A DNA stretch of 61,123 nt, the filler included. It is 5 parts of 5 records of this genome, joined end to end, with 100 filler letters (N's around TTAATTAATTAA, not from the genome) between each part and the next. Parts side by side here need not be neighbours in the genome. Positions count along the whole stretch, not along the records: positions 1 to 31,777 come from SRR31147125_6796; 4 more parts are not named here. The stretch is one strand, 5' to 3'. Positions within the stretch are counted from its first letter, which is position 1. Each line of letters starts with the position of its first letter. Shown piece by piece: positions 1-19,971 of this stretch. The notes under the pieces are model-generated. The model did not search any database and was not told the origin of the DNA. It saw only the letters and a program-made list of their open reading frames with translations. A program made the position numbers and the translations under genes.

Positions 1-542
<542 letters not shown>

Positions 543-746: not shown

Positions 747-752
747 GCTGGT

Positions 753-761
753 ATTATAGCA
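753..761 (-). promoter_or_regulatory. Extended -10 promoter element (TGcTATAAT) ahead of the obgE leader
   Basis: Minus strand reads TGCTATAAT, matching TGnTATAAT. Confidence 0.45.
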
Positions 762-791
762 TCAATTTGAATAATGTCTTATCAATACAAC

Positions 792-1460
792 CTATTTTGT
801 CAAATTTAGACGTTTCCTTTTCGTATCTAATCCTAACTTTTTCAAAACCTTTCGTAAACCAAACCAACCAATTTTTACATGCCCGTACTTTGACGTATTC
901 AAGGCTCGAGCGATATTTATCGTACTTGATTCCGGGTTGGAAAGAATGACCTCACGTACTTTTTCTTCAATAGAATGATTAATGGGTCGAACCGATTGCT
1001 CTGCTTCAGTCGGGCTAATGATTTTTTTGGGACTTGTTTTGGAACTTTTCTTAGGCGCCGCTTCAACATTAACTAGCTTGGGTGCAGTCACTTTGGTGAG
1101 ACCGGATTTTTCAAAATCATCCACAGCTTCTTCAATAGTATCAAAGGATTTCAAAATATAATGAAATTCCAATAGCTCAAATACTTCATAAACCTCAGGA
1201 ATCATTTTAACAAGTTTTAAATCTCCGCCCTTTTCCCGAATACCCTTAATTTCGCTAATAAAAATACCCCAGCCGGCACTACTAATATAATCCACATTTC
1301 CCAAATCGATAATAATGTGATAGGATTCAGATTTTAATATCTCACCTAGTGCATGTTCAAGCTCTGATGATGTGGTTGTGTCAATATATCCACCAACCTT
1401 AATAACTGATATTGTATTTTGCAATCCCGCTTTATCAACTGACAATTGAATGCCTTCCAT
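792..1460 (-). CDS. STAS-domain anti-sigma-factor antagonist (RsbV/SpoIIAA family) with a C-terminal HTH-like extension
   Basis: GGYIDTTTS...IIIDLGNVDYISSAGWG...GGDLKL...VYEVFELL is a STAS signature with the phospho-acceptor Ser. About 100 extra C-terminal residues follow. Confidence 0.92.
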   Translation of the reverse strand: MEGIQLSVDKAGLQNTISVIKVGGYIDTTTSSELEHALGEILKSESYHIIIDLGNVDYISSAGWGIFISEIKGIREKGGDLKLVKMIPEVYEVFELLEFHYILKSFDTIEEAVDDFEKSGLTKVTAPKLVNVEAAPKKSSKTSPKKIISPTEAEQSVRPINHSIEEKVREVILSNPESSTINIARALNTSKYGHVKIGWFGLRKVLKKLGLDTKRKRLNLTK

Positions 1461-1528
1461 TTTTTATCTCCCGTTCCCTAAACTCCAGCAAAATATCTGC
1501 TAATGTGAAATCTTCTCCTTAAGAATTA

Positions 1529-1545
1529 AGCAAGCCCTATGCCTT
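1529..1545 (-). promoter_or_regulatory. Putative sigma54 (-24/-12) promoter for the STAS gene
   Basis: Minus strand AAGGCATAGGGCTTGCT has GG-N10-GC spacing with GGCA and TTGC cores, about 70 nt before the ATG. Confidence 0.5.
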
Positions 1546-1644
1546 CGCTAAAAATGATCTGTTTTAGAATTGAGGTAGTATTCAAGATGAAGATTCAGTA
1601 GATTATACTATTTGTTCCCACAAAAAAATAATTTTATGAACTTA

Positions 1645-1673
1645 AATATAGCTGATAAAGGTTTAAATGTCAA
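1645..1673 (-). promoter_or_regulatory. Putative sigma70 promoter upstream of the STAS gene
   Basis: TTGACA-N17-TATATT on the minus strand. Confidence 0.55.
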
Positions 1674-1765
1674 TAAAAATTATACATGATGTAAAACTTG
1701 AGTAATATTAATTATTATACAAGGTCTACTTGCAAACCTAAAATAAATATAATCAAAAACTTGTA

Positions 1766-4700
1766 TTACATTTTTTCCAGGTAAAGTTTTGCCCGTTCTA
1801 TATTTGCTCGGATATCATTTTTGTGTGGTGTGACTTTAAGAATTTGTTCCCAACATTTAATTGCGCGTTTCAAATCACCGTTGCTTGCGCAAACAACTCC
1901 AAGGTTTTCATAAGCATCGACATTCTTTGAATCTAAATTTAGAACACGCTCATATTGTCTTTCGGCCTCCTTTAATTTTTTACTTTTAAAGTATGTATTA
2001 CCAAGTAATGAATGTATCTGAACATCATCCGGATATTTTTTAACGAGTCTCTTAAACTCGGTAATGGCTTCAATATAATTTTCCTGTTTATACAGTTTAA
2101 TAGCATTTTTCATCTCTTTCTCACGTACAACCAGGTCCTTTTCTTCGCTTATTTTTTTCTTGTCCTTTTTTTGATTTTGTTTTTGTTTCTTGCCAAAATC
2201 AAAATTTGGCTTTTGGGTTGTACTGTTTTCTGCATAAGAGGGATCACTGTCGATAATATCCATTAATTCATCAAAAGTAAGTTTTTGGTTTTCCGGTTCA
2301 GGTAATGATTTTTTCTTTGTGCTTAGATCCGGTTCTTTTATTTCCCATTTTTGTGGTACATTTAAATCGACTTGAGACTCATCGTTATCTTTATTTAATC
2401 TGGTCCTTAAATGTTCTTTTAATATTTTTTCTGCAACAAAATCATCTACTTCTCCTTCGGGTGTCACAAGGCCTTTTTCATCCTCAATTTCCAAAAACTC
2501 GTCAAATGGCTCTTTCAAGTCGGGATTTAAAAATATATCATTCGCATTTTCCTCAGAAATAATTTCTGCATCCTCAATCGACTGTCCCTCAAACACTTTT
2601 TCTACCGGCTTTGATTCCGGTTCATCTAATCCACCACCCTCTTCGATTAATTCAGCAAAATCAAGTTCGTCTTCGTCGCTTTTCTCATATTTCTCAGGAG
2701 AAGATAGAATATCTAATTCCGGAGCATTTAAATCGTCTTCAGCTCGGGTTTCTTTTTTCGATTCCACATCCTTATTTTCAGCATCAGTGAGATTCTCGTC
2801 GGAAATAATGGAAATAATTTCTTTTTCTTTTATTTTTTCTACTTTATCTTCTTTTTCTTTAGAGCTCTTTTTTAAGGATTCTAAAGACTCTGAAGATTTA
2901 GTTTCATCTGACTTTTGTTGTGCCGGAGAATCCGGATCACTTTTTTCCGACTCTTCAGACGGATCCTTTGTCGATTCAAATTTCTGATCTTCAGTTAATG
3001 CCCGATCTTTTCCGGATGCATAATCAAAATAGTCAATAACATTTTCTATTTCTTCATCAAGCGTGTTATTGTCCTGATTTTCCTCCTGAGTAATCTCCAA
3101 ATTGACTTTTATGGGTATGTCTTGACCTGTAGCATATTCAAATGATACAATATTATCTTCCAGCCCTGTACTTTTTTCTGTAACTTCTTCATCTTTAGGC
3201 TTCTCTTCCTCATCATCCTTTACAGAAAACTCTCCACCAGAAGCGTAACTAAAAGTTAAATCATCCTCTTCCAGATCAACATCCACTTCTTTTTCTTCAG
3301 GAATCTCATTACCTAAAGTATCCTGATTCTCAGAGAATTGAGACTCGTCGTCTGCAAAAGATTCTACCTCGGCGGCATCTTCCTCATCAGAATCTTGACT
3401 TGCTTTTTCTGCATAGCTATTCTCTTTTTCTTCTGGCTTTTCCGGGCTTAGGGGTGGCTCACCAGAGGCGTACTCAAACGCAGAATCATCCTCATCAAAA
3501 ACATCCTCTTCCTGAACATTTTTTTCGTTTTTTTCTGTTTCTGTTACCTCAGATAATAACGTTTTTTCTCCTTCAGCATACTCGAATGATATATCATCAC
3601 TCTCCAGGGCTTCTTTTACTTCCTCCCCATCTTTACCATGTGTGGTTGTGGATGAATCGTTTGATTTTTCATTCACCGAGAGATCCTCTCCCCCCGCAAA
3701 ATCAAAAATTTCATCCATATCTATGAATAGCTGATCCTTTTCTCCATCTATCTTTTCCTCCGCTGGAACATCCGCGTCAGCGCTGACAGTCTTTTTATCC
3801 AGCAAATCTTCGACCGGTTTGGTCACGATATCACTTGTCTCAAGAGTCGCTATATCTTGCGGTTGTTTTGTCTCCTGGTCGGGTCCCAGGCGCGATTCTT
3901 TTATTTCAATTTCTTTTATCTCTTTATCTTTTTTCTTATTAGATGCTACCAGTTGTGTGGATTTTTCTTTTTGCTTTGATGGTTCTTTATAAATATCGTT
4001 TTGCAGAATGACTTTACCATCAATAGTTAGTAATGGTGTACCTGGAGGTTTAATCCGTTTTTTTCTTCCACCACGAGAAACAAATGCTTCTCTTAATTCT
4101 TTTGTATTTAACCGGGCACGTACAAGCTCTTCATATATTTTAGAAACGTTGATTTTTGTGTTTCCATAATGTTCTGTATTTAATTCCTCACTGATTCGCT
4201 TGGCCCCATAAGTCGGATATCTACGGATAATATCATAAATCTTTGTTTTTTCTTCTATACTAAGATGTTTGGCTTCAATCTGTTCTGTATCACTGTCTAT
4301 TTCGTAGCTTTCAATTCCTTCCTTTTCAAATACATCTCTATATTTCGTTCTGTAGGCATAAACGGAAAGACCCGCATTTTTACACGCTTTCTTGATAGCA
4401 CTACCTTCCTGAATAAGCTTAAATGCCTTTTGAGCTCGTTTCAGTTCCACTTTATCTGCGGATGTTTCTTCCTTGATTGCAACCAGAGTTATATCGTCAT
4501 TTTGTGGAGTACCCTGTGTAAAAGAATCCAGTTCCCCATTTAGTTTTTCAACAAAGACCTTTGATGGCAGGTGCCCATTCTGCCGAATCACGTTTAAATA
4601 ACGTTCTTCACCAAATAACTGACGACTATCATCCATTGCCTCAGTTACACCATCTGTGTAAATTATCAAGATATCATCTTCCGCCAGCGCGATGGTATCC

Positions 4701-5884
4701 GATTCTATGGATTTTTTAAACAGACCGGGATCCGGAAGAGAAATACCTATTGGAAATCCACGAGGATTTAAATAATATGTATTATTCGTATTGGCCCGAT
4801 ACAGAATCATCGGATTATGGCCAGCACTCGCGTAATTGAGTTTTCGTTTTTTTGAATCAATTATAACGTAAAAAAGGGTAACAAACATACCCTTTTTCAT
4901 ATCATTCACGACAAAGTCATTCACCTTTGCGAGGACTTCAGCGGCGTCTTTTACGCCTCGCGCTTCGGTTCGAAGCGCTGTCCGTATCATTGTCATGACA
5001 AGGGATCCGGGCACACCCTTTCCGGACACATCTGCTACCACAATTCCAAGCGAATCTTTATCTACCTCCACAAAATCAAAGTAATCTCCGCCAACCTCCT
5101 TGGCAGCAGCATAAAAAGAGGCTATTTCATACCCTTCAACATCTGGAAATTCAGATGGAAGAAGTGTTTGTTGAATTTCCTGTGCAACCTGCATCTCTTT
5201 TTGTAATCGCTCCTGCTCAGCCATGTTTTTTTGCGAATCCTTTAGTTTAGAAGTAATATCACTAAAGGCCTTGGCTATTTCCCCAACCTCGGAGGATGCA
5301 TCGATATCCATTTCTTCCATCACACCCGGTTGACTCAGAGCGCGCACCCATTCAGCCAGGCGTCGGAATGGATTCATGACTAAATATATGAGTAAAAATA
5401 ATCCACCGGCAGATAATCCCCATATGAATAAAGACATGTTTAGATATCTAAATCTGGATTTGCTAATCTGAGATTTGACCAGATCATAATCAAGTTGAAA
5501 ATAAATCCGGGAAATCTCTACGTCACCGTTATCCTGAATAGGCCATATGATATTATATATATCTTTACCATTCTGGTTTTTATATCGAAAGACATTTTCA
5601 TCAACAGTTGATTTATTCTCTGGTAAATTAAAACTATCTAAAATATTAAATATATTTTCATCCGTTGTCGCTAAAACCTTGCTATCTTTATCCACTAAAA
5701 AGGCATTTACCATGATTTGATTAAAAACGGATTTTTCTAATAATCGCATGGTTCTATTGGCTTTTTCAATGATCTCAAAATCATTTAAACTGCCTGTGGT
5801 GCCAAGTTGGTCTTTTTCGGCGCTCGTCAAGATACCACTAAAATTATTAGCCAAATCCAAACAGGCACTGTTAGCCTGTGCCAT
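1766..5884 (-). CDS. Membrane SpoIIE/RsbU-type PP2C phosphatase: extracytoplasmic region, TM, HAMP, PP2C, HTH-like pair, long acidic region, C-terminal TPRs; probably the C-terminal part of a fusion with 5827-6456
   Basis: EMQVAQEIQQTLLP...AAKEVGGDYFDF...VADVSGKGVPGSL...ASAGHNP...IYTDGVTEA...DDITLV; HAMP-like MNPFRRLAEWV...SEVGEIAKAF; C-terminal TPRs (HSLLGNTYF, AYENLGVV). Confidence 0.9.
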   Translation of the reverse strand: MAQANSACLDLANNFSGILTSAEKDQLGTTGSLNDFEIIEKANRTMRLLEKSVFNQIMVNAFLVDKDSKVLATTDENIFNILDSFNLPENKSTVDENVFRYKNQNGKDIYNIIWPIQDNGDVEISRIYFQLDYDLVKSQISKSRFRYLNMSLFIWGLSAGGLFLLIYLVMNPFRRLAEWVRALSQPGVMEEMDIDASSEVGEIAKAFSDITSKLKDSQKNMAEQERLQKEMQVAQEIQQTLLPSEFPDVEGYEIASFYAAAKEVGGDYFDFVEVDKDSLGIVVADVSGKGVPGSLVMTMIRTALRTEARGVKDAAEVLAKVNDFVVNDMKKGMFVTLFYVIIDSKKRKLNYASAGHNPMILYRANTNNTYYLNPRGFPIGISLPDPGLFKKSIESDTIALAEDDILIIYTDGVTEAMDDSRQLFGEERYLNVIRQNGHLPSKVFVEKLNGELDSFTQGTPQNDDITLVAIKEETSADKVELKRAQKAFKLIQEGSAIKKACKNAGLSVYAYRTKYRDVFEKEGIESYEIDSDTEQIEAKHLSIEEKTKIYDIIRRYPTYGAKRISEELNTEHYGNTKINVSKIYEELVRARLNTKELREAFVSRGGRKKRIKPPGTPLLTIDGKVILQNDIYKEPSKQKEKSTQLVASNKKKDKEIKEIEIKESRLGPDQETKQPQDIATLETSDIVTKPVEDLLDKKTVSADADVPAEEKIDGEKDQLFIDMDEIFDFAGGEDLSVNEKSNDSSTTTHGKDGEEVKEALESDDISFEYAEGEKTLLSEVTETEKNEKNVQEEDVFDEDDSAFEYASGEPPLSPEKPEEKENSYAEKASQDSDEEDAAEVESFADDESQFSENQDTLGNEIPEEKEVDVDLEEDDLTFSYASGGEFSVKDDEEEKPKDEEVTEKSTGLEDNIVSFEYATGQDIPIKVNLEITQEENQDNNTLDEEIENVIDYFDYASGKDRALTEDQKFESTKDPSEESEKSDPDSPAQQKSDETKSSESLESLKKSSKEKEDKVEKIKEKEIISIISDENLTDAENKDVESKKETRAEDDLNAPELDILSSPEKYEKSDEDELDFAELIEEGGGLDEPESKPVEKVFEGQSIEDAEIISEENANDIFLNPDLKEPFDEFLEIEDEKGLVTPEGEVDDFVAEKILKEHLRTRLNKDNDESQVDLNVPQKWEIKEPDLSTKKKSLPEPENQKLTFDELMDIIDSDPSYAENSTTQKPNFDFGKKQKQNQKKDKKKISEEKDLVVREKEMKNAIKLYKQENYIEAITEFKRLVKKYPDDVQIHSLLGNTYFKSKKLKEAERQYERVLNLDSKNVDAYENLGVVCASNGDLKRAIKCWEQILKVTPHKNDIRANIERAKLYLEKM

Positions 5885-6456
5885 AAAATCCTTTTGGATA
5901 ATTCTTTTTTGCTGAAAGAAAAAAACGTATAGACAAAAATCAAAAGCATGGTGATTAAACCAACGGAATAAAACCAGTACCGTGTCTTGAGTGGTAAAGG
6001 TATCGTTGGAACACTTAGTTTTCTTTTTCTGGGGACGTCTCTTTTTTTAGTTAACCATAATTCATTGCCTTCTTCGGTTTTTCGGTAGTCGATATCATCT
6101 AAAAGACGCCGCATTATAAATATACCCAAACCACCCTTTTTCCCGATATCTACGTACCGCTGTAAATCCGGGTCCTGAACTTTACGAGGATCAAAATATT
6201 TTCCCTGATCAATAAGAATCACAGTCATACTGTTATTCTTAACTATGATCCTCATCGTTAAATCGCCTTCCCAGTCCCGATAAGCGTGTCGTATTATATT
6301 GGTCGCGGCCTCATCAATAGATAACCGGAAGGCATTAACAACCCTTTCTGAAAAGCCATATCGTTTGCCTGTTTTGGTTACAAAATCCCGTAATTCTTTG
6401 AGATAATCAATCTTGGCCGGAACCTTGAGTTGTTCCTTTATCACATGTTTAAACAA
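5827..6456 (-). CDS. Anti-sigma-factor Ser/Thr kinase (RsbW/SpoIIAB, HATPase_c_2) plus TM helix; probably the N-terminus of the phosphatase, split by a frameshift
   Basis: LSIDEAATNIIRHAY (N box), DQGKYFDP (G1), KKGGLGIFIMRRLLD (G2). One extra T in the run at 5919-5925 gives a continuous frame (FVYTFFFFQQKRIIQKDFMAQANS). Confidence 0.88.
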   Translation of the reverse strand: MFKHVIKEQLKVPAKIDYLKELRDFVTKTGKRYGFSERVVNAFRLSIDEAATNIIRHAYRDWEGDLTMRIIVKNNSMTVILIDQGKYFDPRKVQDPDLQRYVDIGKKGGLGIFIMRRLLDDIDYRKTEEGNELWLTKKRDVPRKRKLSVPTIPLPLKTRYWFYSVGLITMLLIFVYTFFSFSKKELSKRILWHRLTVPVWIWLIILVVS

Positions 6457-6473
6457 TACTCATTTCCCTACTT

Positions 6474-8507
6474 TTAGTTCTCTTTATCATTTGCCGCATT
6501 CTTTTTCTTCGCATTCCGGGCGGCGTCAATTGCGTCAAACAGAACTTCATTCAATGGTTGATATTTCCGTGCTTCCTCATAAAACTTGATTGCTTCATCA
6601 TAATTTCCACCCATGTAAGCATTAAATCCTTGCCTATATAAATTTGTGACCTGCTCGGTCATTTCCTCTTTTCTTGCGTTTGCGCGTGCATTGGCATCAT
6701 CGTACTTTTTCTGAAGTGATTTATTGTCAGGTTCGTATTTCAAAGCACTTTTATAAGTCTCGGCAGCCATAGCCCAATTTTCATCCAGTTCAAAAGCAGC
6801 AGCTCTACGACGTAGATCCTGGTAATCCAACCTGTTTTGCAGACGCTTCATTCGACCTTCAATGCGACTCGCGTAAACAGGATTATACTCTCTTGCAACC
6901 TGGGCTGCCTGGTTATATTTGGTCAAAGCATCCAACACACGATTTTTCTTTGCCAAAGCTTCCGCCTCAGTTGATAATTTAACAATTTTTTCTTTTAAAT
7001 CGCGTTCTGCTTTATCTCTGAGTTCTTTGATATCCGTTCTGTTCGAATCTAAACTTAATGCTGCATCACATTCCATTAAAACCCGACTAAACTCTTCTGA
7101 TTCATAATAGATGTCAGCCTTTCGAACGTGCTCATTTATCCTTTCCAGCTGGCGTTTTTGATCTTGCTCTTTAACATTCTTTTCAACGGCTTCCTGTGCC
7201 GCTTTTTCTCGTTTCTCATCTATGGCGGATTGAATCCGGTCGTGCCACACTCGTGCATTTTGCAGGTCTTCATCGGATCCTGTTTGGTCATAGGCCAATA
7301 CACGATTTATAAATACCAATGCGCGCTCATAATCACCCTGGTTAAATCTCATCCTGGCAGATGCCAGACCTTCATCAATGTTTTCGGCTCGTTCAATTCG
7401 TTGTCTGTTTTTAACTTCTTCTTCAATACGTCTTGTTTCCCGCTCATTGTTCTCTGCAATTTTTTCTTCTCTTGTTTTACCTATTTTGAAAACGAAAGAA
7501 ATTCGATGGCTTGTTCCTCCAATATCAGAGTCCCAACTCCAAAAGGAATAATCGATCTGGAAATTTGAATATTTTGCACCCAGGCCAAATGTCGGTTTTA
7601 AGCCCATGGATCCGCTGCTTTTTTGTCGACGCTCGGCTCCAATCCGAAACATTCCCTGCAGATTTGCACTTTGACGATAGCAATATTCAGCACCAAAATG
7701 ATATAACAAAGGCATACGCTTATTATTTATTTTCTTTTCATTCTGATCCACTTCCAGGGCAACCAAAATGTGATTGCCACCCGTTCCCATATAGTGCATT
7801 TTTGATATGCCGAACCTGTAATTGCGGGGTGCCGATTCATTCACATCCACAGCTTTTACAGATCGTTTTATCACATTTTGAATATTTAATCCAACAGCAA
7901 TATTTTGCAGCCATTCATTGGATAAAGGTGGTGTTACCAAAAGGCCAAAATCAGCTCCAAATCCGGTCTCAATGATGCTGACAGCCTGACCTGACGCTTG
8001 TTCCACGTATCCTGGAAAATTGACCCTTTCAACTTTTAGGGTGGTCCCAACAGATATCCAATCAAAAGGTCTTAAGCCATAGCCTAAAAGAAACAACGTT
8101 CTTCCATAGCTTAAACTTCCCAGATAAGTTGGATCTTCATCTCGTATTGGAATATCACCGGTGGATAGCCGTAGTATTCCACTGGAAAACGTTCCAAACG
8201 ACAACGTTGGATGCGCGTATGCGAGATAATCGTACTGTGTATCTCCCAAAAGATTTGTATGGTAGAAACTAAAACTCTGTTGTTGCACGTTTTCCAGCGC
8301 GGCCGGATTCCAATAAAGAGCAAAAGGATCATCCGCCAATGATACAAAAGCTCCACCCATGGCCATCGCTTTGGCCCCTACGGGAAGGTCAAACACATCT
8401 GCAACACCTCCCCACCCATCGCTACTTCCGTTTGTCTGCGAATAAACAGTTGAAAAGAAACCTGTCAAAATAGCGAAAAGAATATATGTCTGTATATTTT
8501 TTATCAC
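6474..8507 (-). CDS. PorV/PorQ-family outer-membrane beta-barrel with a C-terminal coiled-coil/TPR extension
   Basis: Signal peptide, then LPVGAKAMAMGGAFVSLADDPFALYWNPAAL (PorV/FadL-like N-terminal motif). The barrel ends near SHRISFVFKIG and is followed by about 330 aa of helical/TPR sequence. Confidence 0.85.
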   Translation of the reverse strand: MIKNIQTYILFAILTGFFSTVYSQTNGSSDGWGGVADVFDLPVGAKAMAMGGAFVSLADDPFALYWNPAALENVQQQSFSFYHTNLLGDTQYDYLAYAHPTLSFGTFSSGILRLSTGDIPIRDEDPTYLGSLSYGRTLFLLGYGLRPFDWISVGTTLKVERVNFPGYVEQASGQAVSIIETGFGADFGLLVTPPLSNEWLQNIAVGLNIQNVIKRSVKAVDVNESAPRNYRFGISKMHYMGTGGNHILVALEVDQNEKKINNKRMPLLYHFGAEYCYRQSANLQGMFRIGAERRQKSSGSMGLKPTFGLGAKYSNFQIDYSFWSWDSDIGGTSHRISFVFKIGKTREEKIAENNERETRRIEEEVKNRQRIERAENIDEGLASARMRFNQGDYERALVFINRVLAYDQTGSDEDLQNARVWHDRIQSAIDEKREKAAQEAVEKNVKEQDQKRQLERINEHVRKADIYYESEEFSRVLMECDAALSLDSNRTDIKELRDKAERDLKEKIVKLSTEAEALAKKNRVLDALTKYNQAAQVAREYNPVYASRIEGRMKRLQNRLDYQDLRRRAAAFELDENWAMAAETYKSALKYEPDNKSLQKKYDDANARANARKEEMTEQVTNLYRQGFNAYMGGNYDEAIKFYEEARKYQPLNEVLFDAIDAARNAKKKNAANDKEN

Positions 8508-8553
8508 AACACCTTTAAAAGAATTTAATTAATTTTATTTCAACGATTTCAAT

Positions 8554-11500: not shown

Positions 11501-14500
11501 GAGGTTCCTAAATTTGTAATTCTTGCTACAACATCAAATTCCTGGCCCGCTGTTAAAGTTGAATCCGAATCTGTAACAAGTTGTAATGCCAGATCCAGTT
11601 TTGTCGGTACCTGAATCCGTGCTTTGGCCAGTGCATCATTTTCATTAGGTTCGGTAATCTGCGCCAGCAAATCGGTAGACTGGGCTTTAGCAGAAAGGAT
11701 TTGAGCTGTAAAAATTTCGGACTTGTTCCCGATTTGATCGCTCCAGTCCGAGTCCGCTACTATATTAAACTCTGTTTCAACAGATGAATCTTCAGGGATA
11801 TTATCAATTATTTTCGTCACAGGCTCTGAGAGGGATTGTCCATCCGAAGAAAGCTCTATTTTAACTGAATCGACACCGGATCGCTCGCCGGTTTCCACGG
11901 CAACTCTCACAACAAAACTCTGGTCTTTATTTACCAGAAAAGCCCCGGTCGCATCTTTTCTCGCGTTTGGAATTGTTGTCGCAACGATCTTGACCCTGGC
12001 AGTACTAATGACAAGAATAGTATCCGAGCCGGAAGCAGACAAACTTGTACTTTCGACACCTTTGTTCCGGTCGAACGCACTTAGATCCACATCAATTTGA
12101 GCTTCTCCTGCTATTTCTCCATTCTTGCTAATAACATATACCAGTGTATCCTGTACGCCTCCACCTCTGAGAATCAGATCGTTGGATTGAGTCAAAACTG
12201 TTGGTGGACGTATCTGATAATCGGAATCAACCTGTCCGCCTACTGTAAATGTGATATTTTCTTGTGTTACATCGATAAACTCAAGGTCAGCCTGGCCGGT
12301 ATTTTTAACCACGGCATTGATGCGCCAATCCTTCTTGGAATCACCCGCATTAATTTCATCAATAGAGGTAAAAACCTCGACAACCTGCAATTGAGCTCCC
12401 TGCTCTATAGAAACCGTCGTTACATCGTTTTCACCCGGATCCAGCGGTGTTAGATTTTGATTGTTATTTGCCCCGATGGCTTGCGCAATTGTTGATTTTA
12501 ATTCTACCGTCCCTGCTTCATCCCCAGCCTGAACGTTAAAATAAAGCGTATCTCTTTGTCCACTCGCTATAATATCCTGAAATCCTACAACAGGTACTGC
12601 AATAGACGCGAGCGTTCCTGGTATGGAAGCAATTGAAAGTTGAACATTTTTTATCGCTTCAGTACCATTATTTTGCACAGCAACGCCAACAGGAAAAACC
12701 TGGTTATAACTGACAAAATTTTCCGCGCTTGGTCCTGAAAACCAGGTATCAACAATTTGTATAATAGCCGGCTTTTGTATTTTTACCAGAACATCCGCAT
12801 CCACAGCCGGATCAATCCGTGCATTGGATCCATCAATTCCAAAAGCCTGAACAATGGTTGCTGTAAAAGTCTCACCTGAACTATTTTCAGCTGCGTTGGC
12901 TATGACATTAAAGACAGCATCCTTACCGAGTCCGATTTTTATATCCTTTACAACAACCTCAGGATTGAGAATCTGCGAATTCACAGCATTTAATCGTACT
13001 CTAACCGAATCAATATCCTGACCTCCATTATTACTCACAGCCACCTTGATTTGAAATTGTTGATTCGTATTAATGCTGGCAACACCTGACTCATCAACAT
13101 TAAAAACGCCAGGATCAACATAGGTTTTGTTTACAAGTACGACCGCTGACGTGGTTACAAAAATATGTGCTTTGCCTGTTTCTAAAAATGTATTCGACGG
13201 ATCATTTCTATCAGTGGCTCCAACCGCCGCTGTTATGGTTACATCCCCACTTTGAGGGCTCGTTGTTGTCACTTTGTATACAAGAGTATCAACATCGCCA
13301 CCTTTTAAAATCAAACCATCTTCAGATATTATTTGATCGGACACCACGACATAGCCTTGCTTATTAAAGCTAATATCATCAGCTTCCGGAATATCAATCA
13401 ATATCTGACCTGTACCAGGATTGGAAACCACAACATTAATGTACCAGGGATTCACTGTGCCTGTTGGAATAGTATCGATAGAAGTATGTACCGTATCTAT
13501 TTCAAAACTACCAGGATATTGCACTTGCATTGCCAATGTCGTATCTGTGGCCGCCTGTGATTGGAGAACCTCTACTGGCTGTCCGGTGTTTTTCGATTTA
13601 GAATCAATGACCCTGACGCGATAATTGTCAATGCCAGCAACAGCAGGCGCCTGAACCAAAATGCCTGGTTCACTCCATTTGGAACTATTTGCAGCAATAG
13701 AATCGACGAAAATAGTGCTTCCATTCGGAAACGTCGATCCATCTTCAGATACAAATTCCAAAGTAACTTGCTCTACCAGCTCTCCATTAGCAATATTGGC
13801 AAGGTTTGCTTTTAAATAGTATTGCTGATTCGTATTAACAAATGTTCCTAATGTTACATCTGCTATCAGCCCATCTATACGTAATTGCGCGGGGTTTTCA
13901 ACTGTAACGATTGCCTGAATTCCAGTCGTATCCGTTTCAACAGCGACTATTGTTCCGGTATTGAGCTCCTCTGCCGTCACCTTCATATGAATTGTATTTG
14001 AACCCAGAATAGCTGTAGAACTGCTAACCTGATCGATAACAAAAAGAAGGCTATCCTGGCTGTTAGCTCTTAAAATGGCATCACCGGATCCATTCAAGGC
14101 AACAGGCTGCAAGACCGTAAAATTTTCATTTCCAGTGCTAAACTGTAAAAAGGTATCGCTCGGATCCAGATCCAGCAGTAAATCGCTGCCTCCATTATTT
14201 TGCAGATAGGCTGCAACAACCCATTGTTCCTGCTGACCGCGTGTCACTGTTTCCTGACCTGGGCGCAGTTTTGCGACGCTTAAACTCGCTGTTTCCTGCA
14301 CGATAACATATGGCGAATTACCAGGACCAGCTTGTGCTTGCAGGTGCCTGGTTGTTTGCTGGGTATCTGTCATATACACATTGGGAAAAATATTGATTCG
14401 CCCTGCTGGTGTTGATGGACTGACTTCTGATACATTAACTATCAATGTATCAGAAGAATTTGGATTGAGAATATCCGATCCGCTTGCCAAAGTCTGAGGT

Positions 14501-17500
14501 AATTCAAAAGTAAACTGGTCTGTTACATCCTGGGAATCCAGAAAAAACGTAACCCGGGTACTGTCAAATTTCAAGCTGCTTGATCCATTGCTGATGAGAC
14601 CAATTTTTATTGTCCAGGGTTTTGTTTGACCAGCGGTGATGGCTTCACCTTTTGGTTCCACATAATTTATGCTTAATTCACCTGGATCTCCAACAATAAC
14701 CGGATTTATCAGGATTATTTCTTTTTGAAAACTGGTGCCATTTTCCAGACCTTTTAATGTAATACTTGGACTAAAAGAACCAGTATTAAAATTTTCCGAT
14801 ATTGTGTTACCTTGAAATTGAATGGTCGTTGTACCTGAACCGGGTATTGACGTCGCAAAGGATTCATTCAAGGTTGTTGTATATATTAATATTCCATCAG
14901 ACAATCGGAACACGGTTTGTAAAGGATCAAGTTCCACAGTCGATCCTCCGGTATTTTCTATTTCAACCTGAAACTCGACATAACTACCCGTTGCTATGGA
15001 CTGAGGGAACAATGTATTCGTCGCATAAGATAAATCTGCAGGTGTTTGAACTGTAACAGTGCTAAACCCGCCTTCATCCACGGTAGACTTTGATACATAT
15101 CTGTCTCTGTTTATTTCACGCGCGCTAACACGGGAATGAATCGTAAAGTCGCCTGTTGCAGATCCCATTTGTGTTGAATTGAAGATGAGACTGTCTTTTG
15201 TTCCTGCCCGTAAAACAAGATCCCCGGAGGCAGATAAGGAAGATGGACGGTCAAACTCAAAACTTGGTTGCGGTATGGCTCCCTGGTAAAGCCTTATCCA
15301 TGAACTATCGTTTGAGGTCAGATTTAATTCAACATCTGCACCACCGTTTTCATTACTGACAACGACTGTAACCCGCCAATTCGAGGGATTTGCACCGTTT
15401 GTTACAAATGCCTGTGAGGCTCTCACACTTTCAATAACAAAATCTGCCGGTTCCTGAATTTGCACAGAAGCGGCATTGTTTGTAACAACATTTTTGTTCT
15501 CACCGGTATTAACTACACTGTAACGCACATCCGCATCAATAAAGGTTTGACCAATCACCGTTCCGGTTTGAGTTATCGTTACTTTTAATGTGTCCGTCTC
15601 ACCTGCAGGTAATGTATCACCAAAACGCACCAGGCTATTTTGCACATTTTCAGTAAATCCCATTGGATTTGAATAGATGAGCGCAGTATTATTAAAATCT
15701 ATTTCAACATCACTACCACCGGAATTTTCAAGCACCACAGAAACAGTCCATGGATGGGTCATATCGCCTCTTGTGACCGTTGTCTGGGATGGTAAAACGC
15801 TGACGATACTCACATCATCCGGTTCCTGTATATCGATAGACGCAAAAACGTTATTTCTTACAGAGGTATCATAGAATCCATTGTTTGATTCCACCCGGCC
15901 GGTTATGGTAAAAGTGCCTGTTTCGGTTCCATTTTGTTGTGTGTTATACGTGATACTTTTTGTTTGACCTGGATTAATTGTATTTCCACCACCATCCAAC
16001 GTTGACGGTTGGTCAATAGTAAACTGGCTTGTTTTATCTGTTCCATTTTTCGAAAACCGGATATAGGTCGAATTAGGATCAAAATTTACCACTAGTGGAG
16101 AATTGCCGGAATTGGTTATATCCATCTGAACAGACCACAAAGAGGTTTGTGACACAGTTACGGTCGTCTGCGATGGAGTTAAAGCAGCCAATTCAATGAC
16201 AGCAGCCTGACGACAGATAAAACTATCCAAAATGGCACTCTCATATACTGGATTTAAAAGATCAATATTTGCATCCGAATAACTGACTCTTTGAGAAACT
16301 CTGATTTTACCGGTTGGCGCATCTTCAGCAACCGTTATATTGTAATCAAAAGCAGAAAAACTTCCACCACTTACAGAGGACGGATTTCCCGGATCAGAAG
16401 ACACAGAGAATTTATCAGAGACAACGAAATCATCTGAATCAAGAAAAACAAGATTCGTTGAAATGATATTGGCATTGGCAACCGGATTCGTCTCACCTTG
16501 ATTATTGGCAAGCGTCGATTGTATTGGAATGGATGTTTGACCCTGGTCCAATGTATCTGCTGATATCGAAATACTGTTTACAACTATTTCAGCCTGAATT
16601 TGCACGTTCCAGTTATCTGTTGTTGAGGCACTTGCAACATTTACATTTTGTGAAGCAAAATCGCCGGTTACAATACCATCAATTTCAATATTACCTACCT
16701 GTGCATTATTTTGTACATCGACAGCAAATTGCAGTATACTGCTCAATCCGGCGGCAACAGAGGTTATTCCGTCTGTTCTGCTTACAACATAGTCTGCATC
16801 TCTAGAAGCACTCGCTCCATCGCGAAAACGTAATTCCGCCTGGCTTATATTAAAAACGGTGTTTCCCAAATTATTAACCGTCATTTGCACAACAACGTCA
16901 TTTTGCCCCTGGCTGACACTCGTAACACTTGTGGAAATCTCATCAATAACGAGTGCGTTCACTGTAATTTGATCGCTCGTATTTGATACTCCGGCACTCA
17001 CATCTCTGACTGTAATCGTTTGTTGCACAGGCGTGATCAACGTAAAATCATTGCCGAGAAATGTGCTTTGGTCAGACGTTCCGGGAAAAGTGTAATCCGC
17101 GGGCAACAAGGCGGACGCATCAGAACTGGTAAATTGAATAGTGCCGCTATAGTTTGTTTTTGGATTACTGTATGAATCGAAAGCATTCACTGTGACAGCA
17201 GAAGTAAATGTCGATCCACTGACCGTACTGCCCGGTAATCCACCTAGTGTAAGGTTACCTAAAGCACCGGGATCAACAACAAACGGATTGGTGACATCTG
17301 TAATCGTGTTGCTTGGTGACAAATTACCGCGCAATTGTACGCCAGACTCGGCTTTGTATAGTGTTTGATTCGCGGTTCCAATACCATTTGTAACCACAAT
17401 ATCCTGAAAAACAGGTTGGGTTCCGTCCGGGGCAGCCCCACCACCAGCAGAGGCTTCAACCGTCACAATCCCGTCGGCCGGATTGCCGTTATAATCAACA

Positions 17501-18066
17501 GCATTTGAAACCTGCAAGGCAAAGGCATTCCCGGCAGCTACATTTATTGGATCTGATAAATCAAAACTGACGATTGGGCCATAAATAATTGGAGTAACTT
17601 GTCCGCTAGCTATCGGAGTATCATCGTTTTCATTGATATCGATAGTAATAATATCAGATATAGCCGGATCAATCGGATTTCCTATCATGCCAATGACAAT
17701 CTCAACAACAATTGGAGGTGTTAACTGTGCCCCAAACCCATCCCGTTCAAAGACGGCAGTAAAAGTGTCGTTTCCGTTATCAGTAATATCGGGGGAATTA
17801 AAACCACTCGCAGTCGTTGGTGCAGGAGTTCGAAAATTTGCAGCAAACAGGTTAGTTGAATCATATTTAGATGGAAAAGTAAAAGCAATTTTTCCATCCG
17901 ATGGTAAAAAATTTTCAAGAGTAAACTGAAATGTATATGTCGCTTGCTCGCCATAAGTAGGATCACTCAACGATACAGATATATTGCTCAAAGTCTGGGC
18001 AAAACTACTTGCAGAACAGACGAAAATAGATGCAATTAAAAATATTCTAGTTAACTTTTCGTTCAA
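8554..18066 (-). CDS. Giant (3170 aa) secreted beta-sandwich-repeat surface protein with a FlgD-Ig/T9SS-like C-terminal sorting domain
   Basis: Signal peptide ending SSFA-Q. Many degenerate repeats (e.g. VTxGQ..W.V...V.N.G). C-terminus NYPNPF...IKIFTLTGDLV...WDGRNGQG..VMNGVYLAYI...KIAVVK. Confidence 0.85.
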   Translation of the reverse strand: MNEKLTRIFLIASIFVCSASSFAQTLSNISVSLSDPTYGEQATYTFQFTLENFLPSDGKIAFTFPSKYDSTNLFAANFRTPAPTTASGFNSPDITDNGNDTFTAVFERDGFGAQLTPPIVVEIVIGMIGNPIDPAISDIITIDINENDDTPIASGQVTPIIYGPIVSFDLSDPINVAAGNAFALQVSNAVDYNGNPADGIVTVEASAGGGAAPDGTQPVFQDIVVTNGIGTANQTLYKAESGVQLRGNLSPSNTITDVTNPFVVDPGALGNLTLGGLPGSTVSGSTFTSAVTVNAFDSYSNPKTNYSGTIQFTSSDASALLPADYTFPGTSDQSTFLGNDFTLITPVQQTITVRDVSAGVSNTSDQITVNALVIDEISTSVTSVSQGQNDVVVQMTVNNLGNTVFNISQAELRFRDGASASRDADYVVSRTDGITSVAAGLSSILQFAVDVQNNAQVGNIEIDGIVTGDFASQNVNVASASTTDNWNVQIQAEIVVNSISISADTLDQGQTSIPIQSTLANNQGETNPVANANIISTNLVFLDSDDFVVSDKFSVSSDPGNPSSVSGGSFSAFDYNITVAEDAPTGKIRVSQRVSYSDANIDLLNPVYESAILDSFICRQAAVIELAALTPSQTTVTVSQTSLWSVQMDITNSGNSPLVVNFDPNSTYIRFSKNGTDKTSQFTIDQPSTLDGGGNTINPGQTKSITYNTQQNGTETGTFTITGRVESNNGFYDTSVRNNVFASIDIQEPDDVSIVSVLPSQTTVTRGDMTHPWTVSVVLENSGGSDVEIDFNNTALIYSNPMGFTENVQNSLVRFGDTLPAGETDTLKVTITQTGTVIGQTFIDADVRYSVVNTGENKNVVTNNAASVQIQEPADFVIESVRASQAFVTNGANPSNWRVTVVVSNENGGADVELNLTSNDSSWIRLYQGAIPQPSFEFDRPSSLSASGDLVLRAGTKDSLIFNSTQMGSATGDFTIHSRVSAREINRDRYVSKSTVDEGGFSTVTVQTPADLSYATNTLFPQSIATGSYVEFQVEIENTGGSTVELDPLQTVFRLSDGILIYTTTLNESFATSIPGSGTTTIQFQGNTISENFNTGSFSPSITLKGLENGTSFQKEIILINPVIVGDPGELSINYVEPKGEAITAGQTKPWTIKIGLISNGSSSLKFDSTRVTFFLDSQDVTDQFTFELPQTLASGSDILNPNSSDTLIVNVSEVSPSTPAGRINIFPNVYMTDTQQTTRHLQAQAGPGNSPYVIVQETASLSVAKLRPGQETVTRGQQEQWVVAAYLQNNGGSDLLLDLDPSDTFLQFSTGNENFTVLQPVALNGSGDAILRANSQDSLLFVIDQVSSSTAILGSNTIHMKVTAEELNTGTIVAVETDTTGIQAIVTVENPAQLRIDGLIADVTLGTFVNTNQQYYLKANLANIANGELVEQVTLEFVSEDGSTFPNGSTIFVDSIAANSSKWSEPGILVQAPAVAGIDNYRVRVIDSKSKNTGQPVEVLQSQAATDTTLAMQVQYPGSFEIDTVHTSIDTIPTGTVNPWYINVVVSNPGTGQILIDIPEADDISFNKQGYVVVSDQIISEDGLILKGGDVDTLVYKVTTTSPQSGDVTITAAVGATDRNDPSNTFLETGKAHIFVTTSAVVLVNKTYVDPGVFNVDESGVASINTNQQFQIKVAVSNNGGQDIDSVRVRLNAVNSQILNPEVVVKDIKIGLGKDAVFNVIANAAENSSGETFTATIVQAFGIDGSNARIDPAVDADVLVKIQKPAIIQIVDTWFSGPSAENFVSYNQVFPVGVAVQNNGTEAIKNVQLSIASIPGTLASIAVPVVGFQDIIASGQRDTLYFNVQAGDEAGTVELKSTIAQAIGANNNQNLTPLDPGENDVTTVSIEQGAQLQVVEVFTSIDEINAGDSKKDWRINAVVKNTGQADLEFIDVTQENITFTVGGQVDSDYQIRPPTVLTQSNDLILRGGGVQDTLVYVISKNGEIAGEAQIDVDLSAFDRNKGVESTSLSASGSDTILVISTARVKIVATTIPNARKDATGAFLVNKDQSFVVRVAVETGERSGVDSVKIELSSDGQSLSEPVTKIIDNIPEDSSVETEFNIVADSDWSDQIGNKSEIFTAQILSAKAQSTDLLAQITEPNENDALAKARIQVPTKLDLALQLVTDSDSTLTAGQEFDVVARITNLGTSATGAGFIKLEPPEGYGLKITEGISYDPLEKQFELDLDENFMDIDFTLISPTVNSFDDTIRAVISEIPNDLNSQLPALVENDSTYLTVTTVSTDLAVIRFEISEPEGAKDGELSTFQNFKIKAEVQASPNLSNIRATLTLPNLPLVDAEDNYILIGNNEIQLDEAHLVGGAYQAIWSLIAPKVVLENHSFIVSVTGKDAEGDKLDARELEILKIVRGAELELESLIVSDPVSAMQDDRAVFSKGQEATLRTRVVNKGDADISGSGKVKLELFNSGLTLQGEESFEKEFVLGNVVEWDIIAPNEVKAEQPISISITQLPDDENTNTSVPLRNSPNELNVRTDDIGIVNIDTVRISDPLGARDDTVSTGQSFTVYAEISSERVQDNFKAQIRFANNLLRAVVRDQNVDQGPSVQVIWEVLAPEDIGSLLESDSVWVEVTAFDKQSGLQITDTSKRIPVLIEPRTTFSISPKISYPADLIDRVSTDQEFHLTAVINHGGAPYADTDSFTVRLLRPNTDTDKEYSILEGDNVQTTKGNPIWRLKAPSVEPEQISTFSFEFIQWPKDANSGQLAEIDGNMWTFPLRTLKKTELAVRAFLNQVDGPAEGSVRVGNLFDVIAKFDNFGSAQFEGTYRMAIELPNGFTKMQPDTLSTSEESLKWKILAPTNVLTEADTIKVSLVEAPIDQYAKEPAFVQDSTAYVLVKTEAGMVIANSYTVKANSAVTTGGIGIPVLGIELKNQDNSVESRSVLKGLELILKDKAGELLSPGTILSRIAAVEHSDHSHILGELLGSDLSLSDRMSLDFDSFTPDTIVGIEADSIDIIVDISSNAKDLQFQVCIDSANAFKIYDVVTNNRLVIGDKDGNPVEFLQFSSGISVVFDQNLEKIFSNYPNPFGSSSRAETNFVYYLKQDSDVDIKIFTLTGDLVTSWSFLKSDNAQQTKPGIHEGDIRWDGRNGQGAMVMNGVYLAYITTGYGESAMTKIAVVK

Positions 18067-18120
18067 TGGATAACCTTTAAGTATTTCATTTCACAAATAA
18101 CAACAGATTTAACAACTGAT

Positions 18121-18585
18121 TTAATTTCGTGGTGAAAGAGTTGATGTTAAAGTACGATTTGATATAATACGATTATTTTCACGAATAAGGATTAGAAACT
18201 CGTATTCTTTCTCCATATCCTGTGGATTAATCACCGTGGCTAATTTGATATCCGGAGTGCTGCCAGCTCTGACAACATCCCCCAACCCACTTCTCATAAT
18301 CTTGACGGTATCTTTGTTCACGGTGACAGCCAATCCCCCGGTCAGGGCACGCGAATCAGCTAAAATAACCTGAGAAATAATAAAGTCCTGCGGAAAAATG
18401 ATATCTATTTCACCTTGAGGTGTTATGTCCTGCTCCGCCTGAAATACGATATCGTAAGCGGCCGGCCTTTTGGATTCCAATTGCGTAACTTTAACAGATT
18501 CAATGGACTGTGCAAAACTTGATTTTACTCCGACAAAAAAGAACAGGAGTATCAGTATATATCTTGTATATTTCATATTTCTCAC
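18121..18585 (-). CDS. Small secreted hypothetical protein resembling the N-terminal domain of the giant protein
   Basis: Signal peptide ending SSFA-Q. Shares A.Y...F, G.I...FP, R.G.G and NP motifs with residues ~24-130 of the giant protein. Confidence 0.75.
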   Translation of the reverse strand: MRNMKYTRYILILLFFFVGVKSSFAQSIESVKVTQLESKRPAAYDIVFQAEQDITPQGEIDIIFPQDFIISQVILADSRALTGGLAVTVNKDTVKIMRSGLGDVVRAGSTPDIKLATVINPQDMEKEYEFLILIRENNRIISNRTLTSTLSPRN

Positions 18586-18814
18586 TCGATATCAGGTTTT
18601 ATTTACATAATTTTATAAAATAACAGTCCATTACGTGCATACAATAGACTATATTAATTTTTTTCTTTATATCAACAAAATTGTTCAAAAATTGAACAAT
18701 TTTTTTCAAAATCTTTTGAAAAAGTGTCTCAGTTTTTTCATCTTGTCCGAAAGCGAAACAAACTGGTTTAAAAACCAAGACTATTTACGGGTTATTTATA
18801 AGGTTAATACATTG

Positions 18815-18830
18815 TGCAAAGTTTATACCA
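18815..18830 (-). promoter_or_regulatory. Putative sigma54 promoter ahead of the giant-protein cluster
   Basis: Minus strand TGGTATAAACTTTGCA has GG-N10-GC spacing and is close to the TGGCAC-N5-TTGCA consensus. Confidence 0.45.
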
Positions 18831-18834
18831 TAAA

Positions 18835-19971
18835 CTATTTTAAAATAGCGCGCAACAGGAGCAGAATGCCCCTGATTTCAGATTCCAGCAACTTGAGATT
18901 TTTTTTAGCCTTGTCATAACCTGGATTGATTTTAACGGCATGACGAAATTCCTCAGTCGCTTTTGTAAAAAAATGCCACGCTTTTAGCAAATAAGCGATC
19001 CCCAGATTACGTCGTATATCCGCATAGTCCGGGTGCCGCGATGCTGATAGCTCAAGATTCTTAATATATGCCTCCAGCGTATTCTCATCCTTTTGCAAAT
19101 CTGAAAACATATATTTTAAATAAAACTCATTGTCTACAAATGATTTAAGAATGGTTTGTCGTGTCTCCGGATAAGCCTTTTCAAAATCCTCTACTGCCTG
19201 ATTTAATTGATAACGTACTTCCAGGTTCTCAAATCCGGACATGAGATACTTTTTATTGTACCTGGAGGATTGTTTTGCCGCTATGTGCAAATTTTTAGAT
19301 GCCTTTTTAATGCGTACTATAGGGGGAGGTAAATCGGGGTGTTCGGGAGCACGTTGCACACTTTTCAGTAAATACAAACCCAGCAAATAATAGGCGATAT
19401 CATAAGACTCATTGAGTTCTATGGCTCGATCAAATTCTGTGAAGGTTTGTTTATAGTGCTGTAATTTCCAATGAGTCTGTGCGAGAAAAAAGTGCAAGTC
19501 TGCATATTCAGGAGTTTGAACGGCTGCCAGTAAAAACTTTTCCAAAGCAGTTCTGTACTCGGCTTTCTTGAAATAACAGAGTCCCAGGTAGTAGTAACTA
19601 TTCTCTGTTTTGGGATTGAGCTCAAGCGCTAATGAGAATTGATCGATAGCCTCGTCATACAATCCTTTCTCAAAAAACAAACTTCCCAGCTTTTTTATTG
19701 ATTCAGTGTGTTTGGAAGCACGTACCTTTTCCGCCACAAAAAACAACAATTTAAGATCGGACATGACGGATACATGATTACGGTTTACTTCCTCTTCTAT
19801 TTCGTCAGAAGGAAACGTAACCTCTAAAACGATCTCTTTTTTATTAACTAATTGTCCGCCATCAAAAACACTTGTTGTAATTTTACGAGATTCGGCCAGA
19901 AAACTGGTTTGTACGTGTAATTTTCTTTTGCCAAGTCGTAAATTGTTATTATATCCAAAACCCTCTGTCAT
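18835..19971 (-). CDS. Cytoplasmic TPR-repeat protein with a small N-terminal GYNNN..HVQT domain
   Basis: Multiple TPRs (YYYLGLCYF, PEYADLHFFLA, PDYADIRRNLGIAYL). Confidence 0.8.
   Translation of the reverse strand: MTEGFGYNNNLRLGKRKLHVQTSFLAESRKITTSVFDGGQLVNKKEIVLEVTFPSDEIEEEVNRNHVSVMSDLKLLFFVAEKVRASKHTESIKKLGSLFFEKGLYDEAIDQFSLALELNPKTENSYYYLGLCYFKKAEYRTALEKFLLAAVQTPEYADLHFFLAQTHWKLQHYKQTFTEFDRAIELNESYDIAYYLLGLYLLKSVQRAPEHPDLPPPIVRIKKASKNLHIAAKQSSRYNKKYLMSGFENLEVRYQLNQAVEDFEKAYPETRQTILKSFVDNEFYLKYMFSDLQKDENTLEAYIKNLELSASRHPDYADIRRNLGIAYLLKAWHFFTKATEEFRHAVKINPGYDKAKKNLKLLESEIRGILLLLRAILK

Follow-up and report, generated by a model that had tools for sequence, protein, structure and literature searches.

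A conserved gene order places a type IX secretion cargo and its tailed PorV-family barrel beside a predicted membrane kinase/phosphatase and a STAS protein

Introduction

Why do genes for a giant surface protein and an outer-membrane barrel lie end to end with the genes of a phospho-switch, and do the two halves work together? These questions are raised by a locus near the start of a 61,123-nucleotide stretch of DNA (the window), made up of five parts, the first of which is SRR31147125_6796. An original prediction, based on the sequence alone, proposed that the locus encodes an envelope-spanning signalling system. Its parts were a small secreted protein, a giant repeat protein with a sorting-type C-terminal domain (CTD), a PorV-family barrel of the type IX secretion system (T9SS) kind, a kinase-phosphatase fusion and a STAS protein. 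Computational follow-up showed that the parts, their order and their co-inheritance extend across phyla, and the module is quite probably a co-selected functional unit. The fuller reading is that a conserved module joins a T9SS cargo and its own barrel to a SypE-like membrane kinase/phosphatase and its STAS substrate, working as proposed below. It is given a probability of about 45%.

Organization and conservation of the locus

All module genes were found on the minus strand, in the transcription order 154-amino-acid (aa) protein, 3170-aa protein, 677-aa protein, 209-aa open reading frame (ORF), 1372-aa ORF and 222-aa protein (Table 1). The co-orientation and the gaps that had been described were confirmed exactly: 54 nt between the small and giant genes, 46 nt between giant and barrel, and 17 nt between barrel and kinase ORF. 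The description of closely spaced genes holds for these three gaps but not for the last, since 305 nt separate the PP2C ORF from the STAS gene. A scan for promoter-like sites, whose relevance is doubtful for promoters of the Fibrobacterota-Chlorobiota-Bacteroidota (FCB) type, gave 66 sites in the region (55.4 +/- 5.9 in shuffled sequence), overall barely above the shuffles. The best match of the region (11/12, at 1673-1645) lies within the 305-nt gap 5' of the STAS gene. Terminator-like sites numbered 22 (15.3 +/- 3.6 in shuffles), and the scan placed none in the short intergenic gaps.

Related loci (L numbers) and genomes (G numbers) were examined in three phylum-level sets that share no genomes: KSB1-type (G001), Ignavibacteriales-labelled (G005; the second phylum below) and Calditrichia-labelled (G303), the labels being those of the record titles. 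The closest relatives were 34 loci of KSB1-type metagenome-assembled genomes (MAGs), whose barrels are 39-46% identical to that of the window. The giant was present in 33/33 of those with upstream sequence, the kinase-phosphatase fusion in 34/34, and the STAS gene in 29 of the 30 that extend past the fusion. A large CTD-bearing protein was encoded directly 5' of the barrel in 33/33 close loci and also in L037. A fusion match was obtained in all 151 genomes of the KSB1-type set (E<=1e-20), and a tailed-barrel match in 137 (E<=1e-40). In at least 125/137 the barrel gene immediately precedes the fusion gene in the same orientation, at a median gap of 46 nt; setting aside the unpublished G092 and G146 leaves at least 124/135. 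Most of the 12 genomes without this adjacency have the genes at contig ends.

The same arrangement was recovered outside KSB1. In the Ignavibacteriales-labelled set, 131/151 genomes carry the fusion and 132/151 the barrel, the two being adjacent in at least 109/129 genomes among the matches listed. Ten loci of the second phylum, picked across its diversity, all have the order CTD cargo, barrel, fusion (10/10), followed by STAS in 8/10; the cargo ranges from 848 to 2765 aa, the barrel from about 605 to 645 aa and the fusion from 653 to 1041 aa. Among the 61 Calditrichia-labelled genomes, 60 carry the fusion and 58 the barrel. The two are adjacent in 54/58, the other four lying at contig ends, and the full order was traced in two loci with giants of 3265 and 3528 aa. 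One FCPU426-labelled MAG also keeps the full order, CTD-bearing giant included. In every case it is the barrel and never the cargo that is the fusion's immediate neighbour, at gaps of 17-63 nt, and the barrel tail is kept in all three phyla. A fusion orthologue was not found in single genomes labelled Elusimicrobiota, Poribacteria, Rhodothermales or 'bacterium FW305'.

The co-location of the giant/barrel pair with partner-switching genes, on which the original prediction had staked its case, was thus recovered in three phylum-level sets and one MAG. Moreover, the flanking genes differ: obg/dprA/gltX in KSB1, folD/ymdB/rny in the second phylum and DUF4159/DUF4175 in Calditrichia. Because the flanks change between phyla while the core stays, the arrangement is more than an inherited neighbourhood, and this cross-phylum co-location supports the view that the genes form a functional unit. 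Short contigs of runs X4 and X5, both recorded as marine sediment metagenomes, match pieces of window 700-19000 at about 90-99% identity with patchy cover; by these matches, close relatives would be present in the marine sediments of X4 and X5.

The secreted proteins and the PorV-family barrel

The three proteins predicted for the outer half of the module, namely a small secreted protein, a giant with repeats and a sorting-type CTD, and a PorV-family barrel with a long helical tail, were each recovered, and signal-peptide-like N-termini were read from the sequence of all three. The small protein has no match in Pfam or NCBIfam. It resembles the N-terminus of the giant (BLASTP, 30% over 79 aa, pairwise E 4e-6), a weak resemblance to which the signal peptide contributes in part. 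A homologue lies just 5' of the giant gene in 6/6 KSB1-type genomes with sequence reaching that far (L003, L023, L029/L111, L030, L112 and L113). Scanned whole, the giant gave no Pfam or NCBIfam match, TIGR04183 included. When its last 138 aa were scanned alone, TIGR04183 reached 26.7 bits (cut-off 23), and Por_Secre_tail (PF18962) scored 15.4, below its threshold of 27. The CTD resembles those of PorZ and PorU. Plain whole-protein self-BLASTP at 1e-3 detected no repeats; fragment-to-whole BLASTP gave 71 pairs at 18-43% identity, corresponding to about 20 degenerate repeats of about 125 aa between residues ~430 and ~2890. Across phyla, the giants can be aligned in their C-terminal part only.

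The barrel exceeded the cut-off of NF033709 (PorV_fam, the PorV/PorQ family) with 125.8 bits against 90 over residues 39-341. The narrower equivalogs were not reached (PorV 45.1 against 250, PorQ 52.8 against 220 and PorV2 70.4 against 325). An AlphaFold2 model (mean pLDDT 84) placed strands at residues 77-342 and helices at 346-676. Its top Foldseek matches were 8gl6_F and 6h3i_F (E 2.8e-11 and 7.6e-9; TM-score over the target 0.67-0.69), which are PorV chains within SprA translocon structures; FadL ranks next. The model therefore predicts a FadL-like outer-membrane beta-barrel fold. A TPR_2 match falls in the tail at residues 623-652, and the architecture of barrel plus tail is common to 218 database proteins. 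Because an outer-membrane barrel with an even number of strands has both its ends on the periplasmic side, the helical/TPR tail of about 330 aa (residues ~346-676) would be periplasmic.

As for the export machinery, the T9SS core genes SprA and PorU were over cut-off in 5/5 relatives' genomes each. The only T9SS component seen within the window itself was a PorU2-like fragment, a 495-aa N-terminal piece scoring 89.5 bits against 450. PorV-family matches numbered 11 in G005, compared with 25-28 per KSB1-type genome. Several of the matches in G001-G005 lie in long open frames of 614-981 aa, which suggests further tailed or fused paralogues.

The kinase/phosphatase enzyme and its STAS partner

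The original prediction described an inner-membrane RsbW/HAMP/PP2C protein with an extracytoplasmic domain. The kinase and phosphatase domains, the transmembrane helices and the extracytoplasmic domain were found; as assembled, however, they are divided between two ORFs, and the HAMP match is sub-threshold. The 209-aa ORF encodes an RsbW-type kinase (HATPase_c_2, 94.6 bits against 27.4) that ends in a transmembrane helix (TM1), and the N-box, G1 and G2 motifs can be read in its sequence. RsbW models scored 71.5 and 62.8 bits, under their equivalog cut-offs, and more generally the RsbW, SpoIIAB and SpoIIAA equivalog models gave scores far under cut-off. The 1372-aa ORF begins with the sensor (residues ~1-145), followed by a second transmembrane helix (TM2), a HAMP-like linker, PP2C, a helix-turn-helix (HTH)-like region (~545-600), a long low-complexity acidic stretch and C-terminal TPRs (~1255-1360). 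The PP2C domain matched SpoIIE with 167.3 bits against 25 (residues 276-471), and its four Asp-bearing motifs are present; the SiaA model NF038263 gave 64 bits against 700. HAMP (PF00672) after TM2 scored 17.7 bits (cut-off 25, E 0.0047) in the window and 26.2 bits, above the cut-off, in the distant orthologue L104. Both matches to the HTH-like region are below threshold (HTH_21 19.4 against 28.1 bits, HTH_32 18.5 against 33.7).

The two ORFs overlap by 58 nt in different frames, and the break falls in a T7 homopolymer. The first frame fits the relatives until ...FVYTFF and the +2 frame fits from FFFQQKRII on, where ten relatives that were compared read straight through Y.FFFF.RQ. All 34 close relatives have one unsplit ORF, complete in 30 (1221-1665 aa) and running off the contig in four. 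The 30 complete relatives share the domain order kinase, input domain, PP2C. The break is most likely an assembly error and possibly a real inactivation. Consistent with an error-prone assembly, several other genes in the window look truncated when compared with family profiles: GH3 (N-terminal part only), carboxylesterase, NYN and Metalloenzyme fragments and the PorU2-like piece (38960-39823, 41402-41839, 41908-42423, 54544-55107 and 55177-56664). They suggest that indel errors are common in this assembly or that genes in it have decayed. As judged from the sequence, the intact enzyme would have a cytoplasmic kinase, then TM1, the Cache-like domain on the outer side, TM2, the HAMP-like linker and a cytoplasmic PP2C; the basic residues that precede TM1 and follow TM2 agree in placing the sensor outside the cytoplasm.

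The sensor was modelled with high confidence (pLDDT 93.7) as a single Cache/PDC fold. Its closest Foldseek match was the extracellular domain of WalK, followed by KinD, DctB and CitA; the matched Cache/PDC structures include KinD with pyruvate and DctB with succinate or malonate. Within KSB1 the sensor is only 21-31% identical to that of the window, whereas the RsbW and N-terminal PP2C pieces are 57-76% identical (tblastn). Across 29 sequences only A72 and P88 are near-invariant, and there is therefore no sign of a shared ligand pocket. The extracellular domain of WalK is controlled by partner proteins. Low conservation, two near-invariant residues and a WalK-like fold are together more in keeping with a protein partner than with a small ligand common to all.

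The STAS protein predicted after the enzyme gene is present, with a match to its family (PF01740, 67.2 bits) and a score over cut-off for the anti-sigma-antagonist type (TIGR00377, 61.7 bits against 53.45). It carries the motif DLxxVDYxSSAGWG, in which D52, S60, S61 and G63 are invariant in 20/20 aligned sequences; we take the acceptor serine to be S60 or S61, following the SpoIIAA/RsbV motif. A conserved domain of ~55 aa at its C-terminus resembles the part of the enzyme that follows PP2C (35% over 57 aa, E 1e-5) and is kept in KSB1, Calditrichia and part of the second phylum. An HTH had also been claimed for this protein, and that claim was too strong: the tail gave no Pfam match at E<=1, and a profile of 18 such tails searched against the Protein Data Bank gave weak transposase-HTH-like signals only (Sleeping Beauty transposase, E 0.052; SETMAR, E 0.18), none reaching a family threshold. 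Either an HTH or a module for docking is conceivable for this domain.

Variants of the module

The second phylum also has a paralogous form of the module (L105 and L106). Here again a tailed barrel and a giant with a CTD are encoded, together with enzymes divided in another way: a TM-sensor-PP2C protein without the kinase, a protein combining STAS with HATPase_c_2, and a plain STAS protein. At least 8 of the 17 listed PP2C-only paralogues of that phylum adjoin a listed tailed barrel. In G172 the barrel is missing, and the beginning of the fusion gene is overlapped by the gene for a 256-aa secreted protein that is similar to the tail alone.

A second class of RsbW-sensor-PP2C fusion was observed in KSB1-type genomes (G030:C98, G093:C297, G152:C169, G006:C6, G053:C248 and G018:C23). 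These are 43-47% identical to the query, in open frames of up to 1993 aa, and none has an adjoining tailed barrel among the matches listed. In one lineage of the second phylum, a ParA/MinD-like ATPase (AAA_31, 247-262 aa) is encoded between fusion and STAS (L097:18063-18851, L098:18472-19215 and L099:398-1141). Finally, in an Elusimicrobiota-labelled MAG (L069:153-16047) the genes for a CTD protein of 3167 aa and a tailed PorV-like barrel of 536 aa precede those for a FliG_M/FliG_C+TPR protein (650 aa), a protein without family match (457 aa) and a MotA/ExbB-like channel; partner-switching genes are absent. In L069 the cargo-barrel pair may be linked to a motor.

Comparison with known systems

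By domain order, the fused enzyme most resembles Vibrio SypE/SypA, and its action on the STAS protein is predicted from that likeness. In both, an N-terminal RsbW-type kinase, an input domain and a C-terminal PP2C are found in one chain. SypE of Vibrio fischeri is a kinase-REC-PP2C protein that acts on its downstream STAS partner; this partner, SypA, consists of a single domain, and its phosphorylation state forms the output (PMC10120452). The input domain differs: a cytoplasmic receiver in SypE, and here a transmembrane helix, a Cache-like domain, a second transmembrane helix and a HAMP-like linker. Moreover, syp-type polysaccharide genes are absent here, and the neighbours are instead a T9SS cargo and a PorV-family barrel.

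With the RsbU/RsbV/RsbW and SpoIIE/SpoIIAA/SpoIIAB systems, the locus shares all three domain families, catalytic and acceptor motifs included. In contrast to these systems, kinase and phosphatase are fused and membrane-anchored, and no sigma factor gene was seen nearby. Analogues of the phosphatase half are SiaA and the membrane RsbU with a periplasmic domain in Chlamydia. On the secretion side, PorV (LptO) has the family HMM (hidden Markov model), the fold and a neighbouring type-A CTD cargo in common with the barrel, which differs in its added C-terminal helical/TPR tail and in falling short of the PorV, PorQ and PorV2 equivalogs. SprB/SprF likewise pairs a cargo with a dedicated barrel; SprF belongs to the PorP/SprF family, not to PorV. 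In FecA-FecR-FecI, an outer-membrane barrel with an N-terminal signalling domain, an inner-membrane regulator and an extracytoplasmic function (ECF) sigma factor as output are combined. The logic is alike, with a periplasmic extension of the barrel beside an inner-membrane regulator with anti-sigma-type chemistry. The families are unrelated, however; the extension here is C-terminal and helical, and the proposed output is STAS phosphorylation rather than an ECF sigma factor.

A full-text literature search found no paper combining T9SS or PorV with partner switching, or T9SS with anti-sigma factor antagonists or with KSB1. In its main text, the Zhuqueibacterota (KSB1) paper makes no mention of secretion, T9SS, gliding, anti-sigma factors or PorV (PMC11683472). 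As far as searched, the conserved module is undescribed in print. This agrees with the earlier statement that no system with these parts was known, apart from the fused enzyme, which taken alone has a described analogue in SypE.

Little is known of how the T9SS is regulated, of what the many PorV paralogues outside Bacteroidota do, or of the inputs to most partner-switching modules. Here, a phospho-switch is genomically locked to one cargo and barrel in 85-93% of the sampled carrier genomes (counted on genomes with the barrel in KSB1, with the fusion in the Ignavibacteriales-labelled set and with both in the Calditrichia-labelled set). If the halves communicate, partner switching would gain a defined input open to experiment, a tailed PorV paralogue would gain a function, and diderm bacteria would have a new way of reading their own surface. 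Such cell-surface signalling, if true, would stand apart from TonB-dependent transducers, two-component systems and ECF sigma factors, and would occur almost throughout several phyla of the FCB group. The sizes of the parts suit direct biochemistry (tail ~330 aa, sensor ~145 aa, STAS domain ~115 aa).

Proposed mechanism and alternatives

The signalling path is a well-motivated hypothesis. In the proposed mechanism, the T9SS would export the giant immunoglobulin-like repeat protein, which its dedicated barrel would then hold or handle; the barrel's helical/TPR tail would hang in the periplasm and meet the Cache/PDC-like sensor of the inner-membrane enzyme. The state of barrel or cargo (occupied, loaded or absent) would then shift the balance between RsbW-type kinase and PP2C through the HAMP-like linker. 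This balance would set the phosphorylation of the conserved STAS serine (S60/S61), and the STAS protein would be the output, acting on a further target as in SypA. That the link is a physical contact of tail and sensor carrying information inward is a tentative proposal, to which we give somewhat less than an even chance. Its most specific form, in which adhesin load, contact or occupancy is passed through the barrel tail and the Cache-like domain to STAS phosphorylation, is conceivable and, taken as a whole, on the unlikely side. A complex prediction for the tail (345-677) and the sensor (1-146), run twice without alignments, scored 0.00 both times and speaks neither for nor against contact.

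Several observations weigh against this mechanism. Contact between the components, the direction of the signal and its output are what we infer from the parts, and the Cache/PDC fold is also a classic sensor of small ligands, as in KinD-pyruvate, DctB and CitA. With 25-28 PorV-family matches in each KSB1-type genome, a barrel beside a cargo is common in KSB1. The KSB1 region is moreover syntenic throughout for about 30 kb, housekeeping genes included (rsmD, coaD, pta, aminotransferase, TPR, small, giant, barrel, fusion, STAS, obg, dprA, gltX), and counts within the phylum therefore say little. In addition, four KSB1 genomes have two barrel-fusion pairs each and could be mixed bins. The two halves also occur apart. 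The fusion lacks a detectable tailed barrel in L104 of the second phylum, and no barrel match at 1e-25 was found in G157, G159, G172, G173, G177, G182, G198, G200 or G264; judged from these sequences, the phospho-switch can exist without a tailed barrel. Conversely, 3/3 Elusimicrobia-labelled loci have a giant cargo and tailed barrel without partner-switching genes. Since such cargo-barrel pairs exist, the tail may be a general connector to varied inner-membrane partners. Lastly, STAS does not adjoin the fusion in L034, L093 and L096 (in L034, neither STAS nor obg lies within 5.9 kb), and no sigma-factor or other target gene was seen among the annotated neighbours, some flanking ORFs being unscanned.

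The same gene order would be expected of a regulator lying beside its own regulon. The sensor would bind a small molecule or envelope cue, the switch would control the adjacent cargo-barrel operon with no contact between barrel and sensor, and the genes would stay together because regulator and target are co-inherited. The ligand-binding relatives of the sensor fold (KinD with pyruvate, DctB with succinate or malonate, CitA), the genomes with a fusion and no tailed barrel, and the 11/12 promoter-like match in the 305-nt gap 5' of STAS are consistent with this, although that scan was hardly above shuffles. No typical ligand-pocket residues are kept, however, only A72 and P88 being near-invariant. 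A regulator of this kind also leaves unexplained why G172 retains a secreted tail-only protein directly 5' of the fusion, why the barrel and not the cargo is always the immediate neighbour at 17-63 nt, and why the tail is kept in all three phyla. A regulator beside its regulon is rather unlikely.

Information might also run outward, with the state of the phospho-switch passing through sensor and tail and gating the release, anchoring or movement of the giant in adhesion or gliding. This would suit L069, where the cargo-barrel pair is followed by the FliG-like/TPR protein and, two genes on, the MotA/ExbB-like channel, as well as the ParA/MinD-like ATPase between fusion and STAS in L097-L099 and the weak RomY match of the upstream TPR protein (24.3 bits against 50). 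However, the motor-like neighbours come from a single locus, the RomY match is under cut-off, and HAMP-linked sensors normally signal inward; outward control is unlikely. It could finally be asked whether cargo plus barrel and the partner switch are two independent modules, ancestral neighbours that were never separated. Within KSB1 the housekeeping flanks are indeed syntenic too, and each module occurs somewhere without the other. Nevertheless, the adjacency survives in three phylum-level sets and one MAG despite changed flanks, and the paralogous module, with its different gene split, again lies beside a giant cargo and a tailed barrel; mere ancestral neighbourhood is very improbable.

Features of the window and neighbouring genes

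Table 1. Coordinates of the module genes and of selected features within and beside them, in window positions.
Feature	Position	Strand	Basis or location
Small secreted protein, 154 aa	18121-18585	-	ORF, translation
Giant surface protein, 3170 aa	8554-18066	-	ORF; TIGR04183 CTD; repeats
CTD of giant, last ~100 aa	about 8557-8850	-	T9SS type-A sorting domain
PorV-family barrel with helical/TPR tail, 677 aa	6474-8507	-	NF033709; AlphaFold2 model
RsbW-type kinase domain with TM1, separate 209-aa ORF as assembled	5827-6456	-	HATPase_c_2
T7 homopolymer, frame break	5919-5925	-	Translation comparison with relatives
Sensor/TM2/HAMP-like/PP2C ORF, 1372 aa	1766-5884	-	SpoIIE match, sensor model
STAS protein, 222 aa	792-1460	-	PF01740; TIGR00377
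Cytoplasmic TPR protein, 378 aa	18835-19971	-	TPR matches; possible accessory component
obg	3-518		Downstream of STAS gene

Upstream of the small gene lie genes for the 378-aa TPR protein and an aminotransferase, followed by pta, coaD and rsmD. The TPR protein has no signal peptide, and its weak RomY match covers the N-terminal part of that family. A homologue was found 5' of the small gene in 3/3 KSB1-type genomes checked, and 3' of STAS in L094:260-1432, L095:461-1615 and L109:16346-17494; this protein is a possible accessory component of the module. The Obg-sigmaB link known in B. subtilis brings obg to mind as a further member. It was rejected because it adjoins the module in KSB1 only, where the whole neighbourhood is syntenic.

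Elsewhere in the window, the housekeeping block is preceded at 23489-26301 by PilM-like, PilO/T2SS-M-like and pilin-like genes, which are assembly genes of the type IV pilus or type II secretion (T2SS) type. The stretches 31878-36991 and 48194-51675 hold a SusC-like TonB-dependent receptor carrying an STN domain, a SusD-like partner and a BatD-like protein flanked by TPR proteins.

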